Of a stretch of DNA of 64,000 nt, positions 48,174 through 51,495 are shown one piece after another (within the stretch, counting starts at the first letter, position 1; every line of letters begins with the position of its first letter). The DNA is from Methanomassiliicoccales archaeon (GTDB lineage Archaea > Thermoplasmatota > Thermoplasmata > Methanomassiliicoccales > UBA472). The translations under genes were made by a program, and so were the position numbers. The notes under the pieces are model-generated. The model was given only the letters and a program-made list of their open reading frames with translations, was not told where the DNA came from and did not search any database. The DNA is taken from the NCBI GenBank assembly GCA_026394375.1, contig JAPKYJ010000024.1:35259-99258 (forward strand), read 5' to 3'.

Positions 48174-48193
48174 TGGACAAGGGGGGATTCGAA
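48174..48193. repeat. exact 20-nt copy of the tRNA-Ala 3' end (att-like, internal)
   Basis: TGGACAAGGGGGGATTCGAA is identical to 51424-51443. Confidence 0.8.
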
Positions 48194-48448
48194 TATCCTC
48201 CGAGCCAGATGTTCATTTCCTGAAGGGAATCAAAATGGAAATTCGAGTCTAAGGACGGAAAACCCTTTACTTCTTCTTTATTCACTAGACTTCATACTTC
48301 TTGATCCATCTGGCACTCTTCATTCGATGTCTAGCATCAGAATACTAGAGGTACTAGAGCTGATCATCCAGCATTACAACCCATGTCTAGTAGTGAGAAC
48401 TAGACTTGAGAAGGACCGTGAACTGTCGTAATCTAGGGGAGAACATGA

Positions 48449-49326
48449 CAAACGAAGCTGAAATGTGGCGATGTCCGCTTCGTAATCGCCTGCCCCGACC
48501 GGCACGAAAAGCACCTGGTCCACCAGGTCTGCCATCGTCTCCAATGCCCGACCTGCTACCAGGACGCGTCCGGCAGGTCGGCCCATCGCATCGAGGAACG
48601 CCTGAAAGGGTTGCGCAACGCCTACGGGCGGAATGGCGTCCGCCTGGGCAAGCCGAAGCACATTGTTTTCTCGCCGCCCCAGGAGGACTGGCCTGTGGAA
48701 AAGCTGGCCATGGATGGTGGCCGCGGCCTACGCGAGGAGCTCTACCGTCTCCTCCGCGGATACGCCAAGGACCGCGTCTATGGCGGTGCAGCCATCCTCC
48801 ATGATGAACGCCGCAAGCATCTGGACGACACCAATTGCGATACCAGGTGGTGCCGCCGGCGGCATAAGTGGGTGTGGGGGCCGCACATCCACTTCATCGG
48901 CTACGGGTTCTTCGAGAACTCCGCTCTGGTCTACGCCGAGACCGGCTGGGTCTACAAACGAATCGAGGATGACGGCGAACGGGACATCTTCGGCACCGCC
49001 AAGTACCAGCTCACCCACGCCGCCCTGTTCGTGGGTGCCGACGGCGAGCAGGTCGGCACCGCTTACCAGTTCGTCGGTACCATGGCGAACTGCAAGGGGG
49101 TCGGAAGGTGTTGGAGAAGTGGCAGGAGCCAGTGCCCTGCGGCACCTGCAAGAAGGAAATGCATGAGTATGGCGCCTTGGCCGGCGGGGGCGAGCCAGAC
49201 CTGACCGACGACCGTGGCGAGCATCTGGTCTGGCGGGTCGAGGTCGAGTGGTACATCAACGGACGGACCAGGGTGTTCGTTCAGAAGCTGCTCGCTGAGT
49301 GGCTTGAGGACGACGGGGGCGGCTGA
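48449..49326 (+). pseudogene. HUH-endonuclease gene (IS91-like transposase / rolling-circle Rep-like), disrupted
   Basis: The main frame reads KCGDVRFVIACPDRHEKHLVHQVCHRLQCPTC (Zn-binding) ... KHIVFSPP ... WGPHIHFIGYGFF (HUH) ... AKYQLTHAAL (Tyr motif). It has no canonical start after the upstream stop. It shifts frame at the G5 run at 49096-49100 into ...LEKWQEPVPCGTCKKEMHEYG... (ORF 49108-49326). Confidence 0.55.
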
Positions 49327-49367
49327 TGGGAGAAAGCGCGCCGGCCCGCAAGCTATCCTCTCGCAGG

Positions 49368-49397
49368 GCGGGCCTGCGATCGCTTAGGCAGGCCCGC
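49368..49397. repeat. perfect 10-bp inverted repeat (hairpin) downstream of the HUH gene
   Basis: GCGGGCCTGC (49368-49377) pairs with GCAGGCCCGC (49388-49397) across a 10-nt loop. The hairpin is 42 nt after the stop. Confidence 0.7.
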
Positions 49398-49407
49398 CGA
49401 GGCCACC

Positions 49408-49465
49408 TAGAAGGTCTTCTAGAGGGTCTTGTAGAAGGTCTCTAGAAGGTATCCTGGAAGGTCTT
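49408..49465. repeat. five tandem 11-12-nt iterons, TAGAAGGTCTT-like
   Basis: The units are TAGAAGGTCTT, TAGAGGGTCTT, TAGAAGGTCTC, TAGAAGGTATCC and TGGAAGGTCTT, starting at 49408, 49420, 49432, 49443 and 49455. Confidence 0.75.
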
Positions 49466-49519: not shown

Positions 49520-49771
49520 ATGGCTGTTAAGAGAATCGGTGACTCATTGAAGTCCGAGGAGCGGCGGCGGCGGTATGACTTGACACTAGAATCGATACAG
49601 TTAAAATACATCTTCTGTCCGGCCTGTCACAAATCAATGTTGCGATGCAAGAAATGCCTTAACTGCGGATGGGGTACGGTCACCGTCACGCCGAAGGCGA
49701 CGGAGAGCATTGCGGCCAGCGCTGGCTTCGTCTACCATGTCACTGTTGCCTACACGCTTGCTCAGACCTAG
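49520..49771 (+). CDS. small zinc-ribbon protein (island-encoded)
   Basis: 83 aa. Contains CPACHKSMLRCKKCLNCG. Confidence 0.4.
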   Translation: MAVKRIGDSLKSEERRRRYDLTLESIQLKYIFCPACHKSMLRCKKCLNCGWGTVTVTPKATESIAASAGFVYHVTVAYTLAQT

Positions 49772-49851: not shown

Positions 49852-50064
49852 GTGTGGACCTGGATTGAATGGCTGATGATGATTGGCAGTGGCCTGTTCC
49901 TGGCCGGGGCCTTCGTCGCCGTCGGCGGCAGCTCCGCCCTGTTGCCAGGCGTTGCTCTCATCGCCGGAGGGGTTCTGCTGATCCTGCTCGGAGCGTGGTC
50001 GTTCCGGAAGGCGCGGGAGAGCGGGGGAGAGAACGGGATAGTTTCTGACGGTCATCAGCGATGA
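49852..50064 (+). CDS. small two-TM membrane protein (island-encoded)
   Basis: 70 aa with two hydrophobic helices (WLMMIGSGLFLAGAFVAVGG and GVALIAGGVLLILLGAW). Confidence 0.4.
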   Translation: MWTWIEWLMMIGSGLFLAGAFVAVGGSSALLPGVALIAGGVLLILLGAWSFRKARESGGENGIVSDGHQR

Positions 50065-50082
50065 CACTATAGACAAAAGGGG

Positions 50083-50187
50083 GTGAAAAACGAAATGACA
50101 GCGGAAGTGAAGAAAGAGGAAGTGAAGAAACCGGAAGTGAAGAAAGAGGAAGTGAGCCGGTGGAAGAGGAAGTGAAAAACGAAATGA
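50083..50187. repeat. GGAAGTGA array (15-nt spacing) bracketed by a 16-nt direct repeat
   Basis: GAAGTGA starts at 50104, 50119, 50134, 50149 and 50169. GTGAAAAACGAAATGA occurs at 50083-50098 and 50172-50187. The array overlaps a 26-codon mini-ORF (50095-50175, MTAEVKKEEVKKPEVKKEEVSRWKRK). Confidence 0.7.
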
Positions 50188-50189
50188 AA

Positions 50190-50259
50190 GTAACGAAGGC
50201 TTTGACGCTAAACCCCAGTAATCCGTAACGAAGGCTTTGACGCTAAACCCCAGTAATCC
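50190..50259. repeat. perfect 35-bp tandem duplication
   Basis: GTAACGAAGGCTTTGACGCTAAACCCCAGTAATCC occurs at 50190-50224 and again at 50225-50259. An inverted near-copy of the core (TTAGCGTCAGAGCC) lies at 50321-50334. Confidence 0.85.
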
Positions 50260-50439
50260 TTCCTATGAGTAATAAGAATGAAACGACTGGCTAACCATCA
50301 TATCCGATGGAATAAGTAGTTTAGCGTCAGAGCCAACATTAATTCACCTTTATTTGACAGTCGTTGGCATTTCTTCCTCTACGATCTTTATCTCATCATT
50401 TGTCAGTTGATATAGTTCGTAGGCCCTGTTGCAAAAGTC

Positions 50440-50928
50440 TCAGGACCAGAATTCCTTTCGCATGGTCAGCTGAATTAGATTGAAGAGAGCGAGCTTGACC
50501 CGAACCTCATTTCTTCGACCGTTTTCCGACCGACATCGAAGAGGATATCCGAGCAGCGCTCCAATCATGCTGAAGACCGTCTCGGCATGTGCGCGCTTCG
50601 CGTACAGCGAAGCGAAACGGTTCGGCCAGTGATGCGCGAAGTTGACCAGCTTTTGATAGAAGTTCTTCGGCCGTTCAAAGTCACGAGCGTTCTTCCTGAT
50701 GCCATGGAGCGGCGTAGCTCCATGCTGGCGAGCTGCCAGCAGGCAGTCCTCCCCGTGATAAGCGGAGTCGGCCAGACTCCGCTTCACTTGCACGTTCGAG
50801 GGCAGACCGCTCCACACCTGCCTGAACATCTGGCTGTCGTGCACGTTCGAGCGCGTGAGCTCGAACGATAGAACGATGAACTCATCGACCTCGACACGGA
50901 CGACTGGGTCGTCTACGTGATCTCCCTG
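50440..50928 (-). pseudogene. IS4/IS5-superfamily DDE transposase, 5'-truncated remnant
   Basis: Only the C-terminal catalytic part is present: ...FELTRSNVHDSQMF...LADSAYHGED...YAKRAHAETVFSMI. The frame is open upstream only to 50928, with no start codon and no N-terminal domain. Confidence 0.7.
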
Positions 50929-51242
50929 TTATCGGGCTTTTTCAGCTGGGGAAGTTTCCTCAACCTCGCAGGCGACCTTATGCTGAACTGGACATTCGGC
51001 TCAAAGTGGTAAGCCGGTTCGCCGGACATGGGGTTGTTCTCATTGAGGATTCGGTACGCCCTCATGAGCGTAATCCGCATCCTGACCTCGGTTCCGTCGC
51101 TTAGATTGGCGACAATCCATGGGTCGTTCTTCTGCTCCACCAATACCTCAACAGCATCCTTGATGACACCTTTCACAATTAGCTGGATGACGTCCTCAGC
51201 CGGTTCTTGCTGTTTCTCCTGGGGTTTTTCTGCCATAGGCAT
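50913..51242 (-). CDS. hypothetical protein (island-encoded)
   Basis: 109 aa with coding-like composition. No family recognised. A 16-bp palindrome and a TATA-like box lie just upstream. Confidence 0.4.
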   Translation of the reverse strand: MPMAEKPQEKQQEPAEDVIQLIVKGVIKDAVEVLVEQKNDPWIVANLSDGTEVRMRITLMRAYRILNENNPMSGEPAYHFEPNVQFSIRSPARLRKLPQLKKPDNREIT

Positions 51243-51420
51243 CGTGATATAGAATGGATGTGGCCTAAAAAGGATATCCTTTTAACGCATGATTTCCCCG
51301 CTTCACGCCAACATAGCTGGTTTCTAACAAAGGGAGGGGGGTCTATCACCCCCATCCTTTTGCTTTGCCGTTGAAGATCTCGAGAACGCGGTCGGGCAGT
51401 CTTGGCGTGAGCCAGGAAAA

Positions 51421-51495
51421 TGGTGGACAAGGGGGGATTCGAACCCCCGGCTTCCGCCTTGCGAAGGCGGCGATCTTCCGCTGATCTACTTGCCC
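51421..51495 (-). tRNA. tRNA-Ala (anticodon CGC), CCA encoded
   Basis: Manual cloverleaf: GGGCAAG-TA-GATC-AGCGGAA-GATC-G-CCGCC-TTCGCAA-GGCGG-AAGCC-GGGGG-TTCGAAT-CCCCC-CTTGTCC-A-CCA. It has the G3:U70 alanine identity pair. Confidence 0.9.

Follow-up and report, generated by a model that had tools for sequence, protein, structure and literature searches.

We analyzed a 64,000-nucleotide (nt) stretch of a Methanomassiliicoccales archaeon contig (JAPKYJ010000024.1, positions 35,259 to 99,258; hereafter the window), in which positions 48449 to 49326 hold what is probably the broken remnant of a gene for a replication initiator (Rep) protein. An initial annotation, made from the letters and their open reading frames (ORFs), had described this locus as an IS91-like or rolling-circle HUH gene that needs two frame repairs to be read. 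All five motifs it listed were found, in the order and at the coordinates it gave, as were the run of five G residues (G5) and the lack of a start codon. The gene is made up of the following features.

48449..49099, + strand: Rep remnant part 1; homology begins at 48458, 80% identical to P0001 residues 92-305
49096..49100, + strand: G5 run, 1 nt shorter than the G6 of an intact relative; the frame moves by -1
49099..49326, + strand: Rep remnant part 2, the C-terminal zinc (Zn) ribbon (CGTCKKEMH) and terminal helix; 74% identical to P0001 residues 301-378

Reading frames and lesions of the rep remnant

Part 1, read in the frame of 48449 (QTKLKCGDVRFVIACPDRHEKHLVHQVCHRLQCPTC ... KHIVFSPP ... WGPHIHFIGYGFF ... 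AKYQLTHAAL ... ANCKG), contains a Zn module, the KHIVFSPP block, an H..R..H..C..C..H insertion, the HUH-like motif PHIH, and YQLTH, while part 2 reads ...VLEKWQEPVPCGTCKKEMHEYG...DDGGG* in the frame of 49108-49326 and ends with the stop codon at 49324-49326. The repaired protein has 11 homologues (E = 8e-158 to 3e-44), the two closest of which, P0001 (378 amino acids [aa], 79% identity) and the true ORF of locus L064 (394 aa, 68%), are both intact; together with the 1,407 cluster representatives described below, these homologues show that the motifs are not there by chance. At the 3' break, the DNA alignment sets CAAGGGGGGCCGG (G6) in the intact relative, circle L001, against CAAGGGGGTCGG (G5) in the window. 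Intact proteins read ANCKGGR(K/T)VL at this point, and a -1 correction in the window gives the family reading.

Of the two frame repairs initially proposed, the one at the G run thus restores the reading of the intact relatives, whereas the 5' defect appears better described as a truncation than as a second simple frameshift, because the window lacks some 90 codons of the N terminus, those of the conserved pGxG motif among them. DNA homology to both closest relatives begins sharply at 48458-48461, residues 1-91 of P0001 have no match anywhere in the window, and every reading frame is closed across 48194-48457. In the intact closest relatives, these roughly 90 additional codons carry LYPAYSPSS...Y.R..G motifs; the missing part is mostly a disordered tail (predicted local distance difference test [pLDDT] <50) that ends in a strand with the pGxG motif, which is kept across the family, including its Bathyarchaeia and haloarchaeal members. 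An in-frame TGA lies at 48446-48448, and the codons from there to the first Cys (CAA ACG AAG CTG AAA) include no ATG, GTG or TTG; the in-frame ATG of L001 (Met92) aligns with the window's CTG. The earliest canonical in-frame start is TTG 48611, which lies 3' of the Zn motif and yields a 197-aa ORF. This ORF is the NCBI hypothetical protein NT137_06770 of a Methanomassiliicoccales archaeon metagenome-assembled genome (MAG), on a 168-kb contig, in agreement with the Thermoplasmata-like archaeal host suggested initially. As a weaker alternative, the out-of-frame ATG at 48445, which a Shine-Dalgarno (SD)-like GGGGAG precedes by 4 nt, could once have headed a variant with a short N terminus and later been put out of frame by a 1-nt indel. 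Such SD-like motifs lie upstream of 53% of window genes against a background of 27%, and are therefore weak evidence.

We also considered whether the gene had been split by integration and would be restored on circularization, as in SNJ2, and rejected this: the in-frame TGA lies directly upstream, 48194-48457 is closed, and a remnant of the N terminus is found at neither end of the element.

Judged by its substitutions, the decay of the window copy is recent, because its ratio of nonsynonymous to synonymous substitution rates (dN/dS) against L001 (0.22) is close to that between two intact copies (0.19), lineage-specific substitutions number 18 versus 14, and every family-invariant residue is still present. 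Long intact ORFs cover 84% of the remaining window, in which we saw no broken genes; homopolymer and indel errors are thus not pervasive in this assembly.

Conserved residues and predicted fold

We assessed conservation in an alignment of 128 diverse family members that share 20-69% identity. Five residues, H206, H234, H236, Y274 and H278, are invariant in 128 of 128, and they include the His and Tyr residues initially picked out; five N-terminal Cys, H159, S163, R209, P233 and the C-terminal C319 and C322 are near-invariant. In the window, the PHIH motif containing H234 and H236 is encoded at 48882-48893. The AlphaFold model of P0001 (mean pLDDT 76, core >90) has a ferredoxin-like alpha/beta fold with uS10 and CutA1 as its top neighbors in the PDB, and it places H234 and H236 in the middle of strand 227-243, Y274 in helix 268-276, and H278 one turn further on. 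The invariant H278 (Tyr+4) and H206 are candidate third metal ligands.

An intact Rep is built from a variable, disordered N-terminal tail closing in the conserved pGxG strand; a Cys-rich Zn module; a putative catalytic core with His-x-His on a beta-strand and Tyr-x3-His on a later helix; a second His/Cys insertion; and a C-terminal Zn ribbon.

A large family carried on small circles

A profile built from ten homologues and searched against 1.84 billion proteins, clustered at 50% identity, retrieved 1,407 cluster representatives at E <=1e-3 and 806 at E <=1e-10. Scans of the repaired protein and 128 relatives with Pfam, NCBIfam and PHROGs found no model that covers the family; one signal recurred, Zn_Tnp_IS91, and it stayed below threshold. 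Its source metagenomes are anoxic sediment, peat and digester, and 52 of 54 metagenome loci lie on contigs of 3.9 kb or less. By calling circles from exact terminal overlaps of an assembler k-mer length (30, 55, 87, 93, 123, 127 or 141 nt), we obtained 12 distinct circles of 1,599-2,735 bp, one of which (2,149 bp) is identical in three assemblies and another (2,067 bp) recurs in two with one mismatch. Five circles (1,599, 1,611, 1,611, 2,067 and 2,187 bp) contain no other plausible gene, and L001 also encodes two small ribbon-helix-helix (RHH)-like ORFs. Longer contigs are head-to-tail arrays of 1.9-2.6-kb units; in L060, for example, a 2,623-bp unit is repeated 2.5 times at 100% identity. Hairpins downstream of rep are frequent across the 12 circles, and no universal loop motif is common to them.

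We found no matches in IMG/VR, and none when P0001 was searched by tblastn against PLSDB and INPHARED. The 185,579 GTDB species-representative genomes gave a single match, a 1,226-bp contig in an Armatimonadota MAG (JAKORR010000658.1), which is probably a mis-binned circle fragment and not evidence of a bacterial host. None of the circles carries a capsid-like gene, the free circles contain no attachment (att)-like sequence at up to 4 mismatches, and no tRNA genes occur in the related loci.

Several individual loci have features of their own. In five contigs (L022, L028, L030, L020 and L031), the head-to-tail units are only 65-94% identical and each has a different Rep variant; such contigs would be heteromultimers of circles that reside together, or else chimeras made in assembly. 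According to the contig names, coverage in sample ERZ791558 reaches 1,174x, 584x and 368x for L060, L055 and L056, which indicates a very high copy number or a bloom. The 2,070-bp circle L014 encodes, besides rep, a 179-aa protein of near-exact repeats (MLHDVTEELHRCNVTLQ...), and it carries a 15-bp palindromic hairpin, TGTAACGTAACGTTAC.

Relationship to the Reps of two haloarchaeal plasmids

By tblastn, only a divergent member, P0140, reaches haloarchaeal plasmids. When the family profile was compared by hhalign with the large ORFs of pSCM201 and pZMX101, the probabilities were 98.6% (E = 4.8e-16) and 98.3% (E = 1.7e-14), respectively, over about 200 columns in which pGxG, C..CP, xHIVxSPP, the H206 strand, PHxH and YxLTH are all in register. 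Both ORFs are annotated "hypothetical protein" and belong to no Pfam family. Judged by these profile matches, the window gene is in the same superfamily as the Reps of pSCM201 and pZMX101. In both plasmids the minimal replicon reportedly consists of rep and a non-coding origin beside it, which in pSCM201 means rep201 and an adjacent AT-rich origin that bears repeats; our repeat analysis of pSCM201 found nothing comparable to the iterons of the window.

Experiments located the minimal replicon of each plasmid, as the titles of two papers, one of them in J Bacteriol 2006, state (reference list of PMC3528665). On the metagenomic side, the family protein must be the initiator of its own element, because it is the sole gene on circles of 1.6-2.2 kb. 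We therefore have high confidence that the family protein is a replication initiator.

Replication mechanism

How these proteins start replication is a separate question, and here we weighed two hypotheses. The one toward which we lean, by a modest preference, is that the family Rep is an HUH-type nickase that primes unidirectional replication: the His residues would hold a divalent metal, the Tyr would cut one DNA strand at an origin adjoining rep, where the window has a hairpin and iterons (see below), and the freed 3'-OH would prime synthesis. With H234 and H236 on a strand, Y274 on the next helix and H278 one turn on, the family has the HUH layout of Rep-class enzymes, and the ligand at Tyr+4 compares with the Tyr-x3-Gln of IS608 TnpA and the Tyr-x3-Tyr of phiX174 gpA. 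Foldseek against predicted viral structures (BFVD) returned seven matches below 1e-3 (E from 3e-6, probability ~1.0); the named matches are a microvirus "replication initiator," ORF2/G2P and VP4, with HRPV-1 protein 1 at E = 0.049. The link to HUH proteins thus rests on the invariant residues, their placement in the secondary structure, and the fold matches to predicted microvirus Rep structures.

Several results weigh against nicking. The initial annotation had named the lack of a significant match to any HUH family as a result that would refute it, and at the sequence level there was indeed no match to any HUH family in Pfam, NCBIfam, PHROGs or PDB sequences, the PDB sequence profile search giving 0 matches. 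In hhalign comparisons with a gokushovirus VP4 profile of 31 sequences (E = 0.037) and with HRPV-1 ORF1 (E = 0.13), PHxH alone was aligned, and neither result was significant. The PF23343 hidden Markov model (HMM) matched 0 of 128 members, while control VP4 homologues all carry this domain. Foldseek against solved structures gave nothing significant, its best matches being generic ferredoxin-like folds and the circovirus Rep domain reaching E = 0.37; we know of no solved structure of a gpA/VP4-type protein, which may explain this null. In addition, the title of the pSCM201 paper, listed in the references of PMC3528665, speaks of "unidirectional theta replication."

This title, coming from a plasmid whose Rep matches the family profile at 98.6% probability, is one reason to consider that the Rep is instead a theta-type initiator, which would bind iterons and open an adjacent AT-rich origin without cutting it. 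Its conserved His, Cys and Tyr residues would then contribute to DNA binding or to folding that depends on metal, and the rep gene of the window would be just as dead. The five iterons and the GC-poorer leader, rich in repeats, that adjoin the window gene fit such an initiator, as does the absence of significant matches among solved HUH structures and HUH sequence families. However, the sole invariant residues are H-x-H on a strand and Tyr-x3-His on a helix, a pattern expected of a catalytic center and not of a DNA-binding surface, and the fold matches are to rolling-circle initiators. A nick-primed start at a fixed site and in one direction would, moreover, also look "unidirectional." We consequently regard the theta-type initiator as rather unlikely, while still a serious contender.

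The element beside tRNA-Ala(CGC)

The rep remnant lies in a 3.25-kb stretch that ends at a tRNA gene and contains these further features.

48174..48193, no strand assigned: attL-like repeat, TGGACAAGGGGGGATTCGAA, identical to the 3'-terminal 20 nt of tRNA-Ala; exact direct repeat (20/20 nt) of 51424-51443
48260..48444, + strand: non-coding leader, GC-poorer, 7 CTAG in 150 nt; no homology to relatives, three frames closed
49367..49398, + strand: perfect 11-bp GC-rich hairpin, GGCGGGCCTGC / GCAGGCCCGCC, with a 10-nt loop (fold prediction)
49407..49465, + strand: five tandem 12-nt iterons, CTAGAAGGTCTT (TRF score 76)
49520..49771, + strand: 83-aa Zn-ribbon ORF (weak DZR match, E = 0.012)
49852..50064, + strand: 70-aa ORF with two transmembrane (TM) segments
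50103..50259, + strand: tandem repeats, 15-nt x3.5 (GGAAGTGAAGAAAGA) and 35-nt x2 (repeat analysis)
50440..50844, - strand: DDE_Tnp_1 (IS4/IS5-type) transposase, C-terminal part only, matching profile positions 60-198 of 200 (Pfam E = 2.7e-12)
50897..51363, - strand: 467-nt block with a 109-aa ORF (50913-51242) without Pfam match; 91-92% identical to five metagenome contigs
51421..51495, - strand: tRNA-Ala(CGC) (ARAGORN; Rfam 67.9 bits); its 3' 20 nt (51424-51443) are the attR-like repeat

The 20-nt copies at 48174 and 51424 share orientation, and the 3.25 kb between them is the sole gene-poor stretch of the window. The hairpin and the five iterons sit 40-140 nt past the rep stop. The hairpin stem is 100% identical in circle L001, where the flanks have diverged, and the structure is a candidate origin or nick-site hairpin, or else a terminator. 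The order Rep, Zn-ribbon ORF, small TM ORF is that of a Bathyarchaeia element described below. No ORF between 48194 and 51423 matches an integrase. A GYD gene flanks the element; its protein has no entry in the contig index, and by that route no empty site was found. We read this region as a degraded integrated plasmid-like element that has lost its integrase and gained an insertion sequence (IS) fragment.

We made several other observations within the element. Seven CTAG sites fall at 48285-48433 in the leader, compared with 1.6 per kb across the window, and the downstream iterons open with the same CTAGA core, so Rep-binding sites may flank the gene on both sides. Repeats are dense at 50075-50344, where the 15-nt units are bracketed by a 27-nt repeat, an exact 35-nt tandem duplication occupies 50190-50259 and an inverted partial copy lies at 50319-50344; this region may be a second origin-like structure or an IS end. 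The N-terminal half of the transposase is missing and we identified no IS ends for the remaining fragment, which is a sign of decay in the element. The 467-nt block behaves like a small mobile cassette, in that the five contigs sharing it have flanks unrelated to the window; a homologue search with its 109-aa ORF returned one cluster and no function. Finally, a perfect 13-nt inverted repeat, AGCCAGATGTTCA / TGAACATCTGGCT, is found at 48203-48215, just inside attL, and at 50823-50835 in the transposase fragment, where about 0.1 such pairs would be expected by chance in this stretch.

An integrated relative in Bathyarchaeia

Two further loci, L058 and L059, hold a distant family member within an 8.8-kb element that is bounded by 42-nt direct repeats and also carries a tyrosine integrase, an Eco57I-like enzyme and DUF3800. 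The genes flanking this element match a "Candidatus Bathyarchaeia archaeon" MAG and, in contrast to the window element, it is not at a tRNA gene. In its Rep homologue (L059 2404-3641; L058 6933-8170), the catalytic part (311 aa) and the Zn ribbon (101 aa) are two ORFs that overlap in ATGA, and the stop comes after a GGTGGGGGTT run. The C-terminal Zn ribbon may be a module that can be detached, or this may be a point at which integrated copies are prone to break.

Alternative identities of the gene and its element

Taking the lesions and the surrounding element together, we conclude that the window copy probably cannot make Rep and is the inactivated remnant of the rep gene of a small archaeal plasmid-like element, lying in a degraded element integrated at a tRNA gene. 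Two points tell against this conclusion: the G5 run and the 5' junction are known from the assembled sequence alone, and the boundaries of the element are set by the 20-nt repeat alone. The gene could instead be intact in the organism, either because errors of sequencing or assembly produced the G5 run and the 5' end, or because it is expressed by a programmed -1 slip on G GGG G and a start at ATG 48445 after a second shift. The break does fall within a homopolymer, and if tRNA-Gly slipped by -1 on GGG-G, the relatives' CKGGRKV would result exactly. In addition, an SD-like GGGGAG lies 4 nt before ATG 48445, the catalytic residues are all kept and dN/dS is low. Nevertheless, the intact relative simply has G6, no other gene in the 64-kb window is broken, both repairs together still leave a protein without the family-wide pGxG strand, and the SD-like motif carries little weight; known transcriptional slippage needs a longer run than G5, and we saw no stimulatory structure, although none was sought. 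We consider an intact gene improbable, and of the initial choice between pseudogene, sequencing error and frameshifting, what stands is a pseudogene-like remnant of a mobile-element gene.

The other two identities that we weighed concern the nature of the element. The small circles could be single-stranded DNA (ssDNA) satellite or virus genomes packaged by a helper, with the window copy a provirus remnant: microvirus initiators give the nearest fold matches, coverage is very high for some circles (1,174x, 584x), and one-gene circles resemble alphasatellites. Against this, none of the circles has a capsid-like gene, IMG/VR and INPHARED contain no matches, such accessory ORFs as occur are RHH-like regulators, of a kind usual for plasmids, and the characterized relatives are plasmids, so a satellite or virus has only a small chance of being the correct description. 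The initial comparison with IS91 Y2 transposases or rolling-circle Reps held for the module order of an initiator and for the HUH-like signature, but not for IS91 itself, in which the gene would be a pseudogene of a rolling-circle Y2 transposase and the circles transposition intermediates. A Zn module does precede an HUH-like motif as in IS91, and the HMM check initially suggested gave sub-threshold matches to Zn_Tnp_IS91, both for the window protein (E = 0.044, 14.2 bits against a cut-off of 26.3) and for 7 of the 128 members at E <=0.01 (best 5e-4). Y2_Tnp, however, matches 0 of 128 members, and NF033538 reaches only E = 0.16 (11 bits against a cut-off of 125) over the Zn region. IS91 and other Y2 transposases have a pair of catalytic Tyr residues, whereas this family has a single invariant Tyr with an invariant His, not a Tyr, at +4. 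IS91-type elements are chromosomal insertions whose ends are specific to the element and which make no long duplication of the target. Here, 52 of 54 loci are 3.9 kb or shorter, many of them circular or head-to-tail, with one 1.2-kb contig in 185,579 species genomes; the element that holds the window copy is bounded by a 20-nt repeat of a tRNA gene end; and the family is homologous to plasmid rep genes. An IS91 origin is thus very hard to sustain. Two other classes of initiator were tried and rejected: CRESS-type (circular Rep-encoding ssDNA) Reps were ruled out by the absence of a helicase domain, and the Pfam domain of Rep-Arvir (DUF7845) is matched by no member of the 128, the family model being ferredoxin-like and not TATA-binding protein (TBP)-like.

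Significance and comparison with known systems

The dead window gene is in itself ordinary, and of modest interest as a fossil; its value is as a pointer and anchor to a family that should clearly interest researchers of archaeal mobile elements. That family spans more than 1,400 protein clusters and is named in no curated library, and only two of its members, both Reps of haloarchaeal plasmids, have been characterized, even these being still listed as "hypothetical." The window copy ties 1.6-2.7-kb metagenomic circles that had no host to a Methanomassiliicoccales chromosome, and the second integrated copy ties them to Bathyarchaeia. In the open-access literature we found no description of a non-halophile clade with an extra His/Cys insertion, of its 1.6-2.7-kb circles, of its host links or of the HUH-like signature, though an earlier description elsewhere is possible.

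The invariant H-x-H / Y-x3-H signature offers a testable hypothesis for how replication starts, in pSCM201 as well: if the family is an HUH branch, the "unidirectional theta" replication of this plasmid would be nick-primed. More broadly, and as a tentative proposal that we hold with less than even confidence, Rep201-like proteins may form a large, archaea-wide and unrecognized branch of HUH-type nicking initiators. In methanogenic sediments, peat and digesters, this branch would drive one-gene circles of about 1.6 kb, the smallest replicons so far seen in archaea, and its hosts would span three or more lineages (Halobacteria, Methanomassiliicoccales and Bathyarchaeia). If this is true, one-gene replicons would be candidate minimal cloning vectors for methanogens and Bathyarchaeia, which currently have no such vectors.

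Of the known systems, the closest are pSCM201 (Haloarcula sp. AS7094, 3,463 bp) and pZMX101 (Halorubrum saccharovorum, 3,918 bp), which are likewise small plasmids with a homologous Rep core. Their Reps are only about 22% identical to the family and are without the His/Cys insertion (KHxDGxxC...C...H) of the present clade; their hosts are Halobacteria, whereas the present clade is tied to Methanomassiliicoccales and Bathyarchaeia, and its circles (1.6-2.7 kb) are smaller. The initiators of Microviridae (VP4 / phiX174 gpA type; PF23343 REP_ORF2-G2P) are the best fold matches of the family, and VP4 has the same order of modules, namely an N-terminal Cys cluster and helix, motif I, PHxH and a Tyr helix, as illustrated by the phiMH2K VP4 motifs CRKCIPCRLNMAREKA, FLTLTY, RPHWHVLIF and YVARYAAKK. 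They differ in having a Tyr pair (Y-x3-Y) where the family has Y-x3-H, TM-scores are low (0.28-0.5), and the capsid genes of Microviridae accompany none of the present family.

Rep-Arvir (DUF7845; RepSNJ2 of the pleolipovirus SNJ2) is a recently recognized group of archaeal initiators that plasmids, viruses and integrated elements encode, the origin being a hairpin 3' of rep (PMC13107129). Its fold is TBP-like and related to that of Rep_trans, and its Tyr motif is KHYYM. The present family resembles it as an archaeal initiator on plasmids and integrated elements, and is set apart by its H-x-H and Zn modules. IS91-family Y2 transposases share the Zn module before an HUH-like motif and differ from the family in its free circles or integrase-type insertion. 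Lastly, the window element is like the tRNA-targeting integrative plasmids of archaea (tyrosine-integrase type) in that its direct repeat copies the 3' end of a tRNA gene, and unlike them in being without an integrase and only 3.25 kb long.

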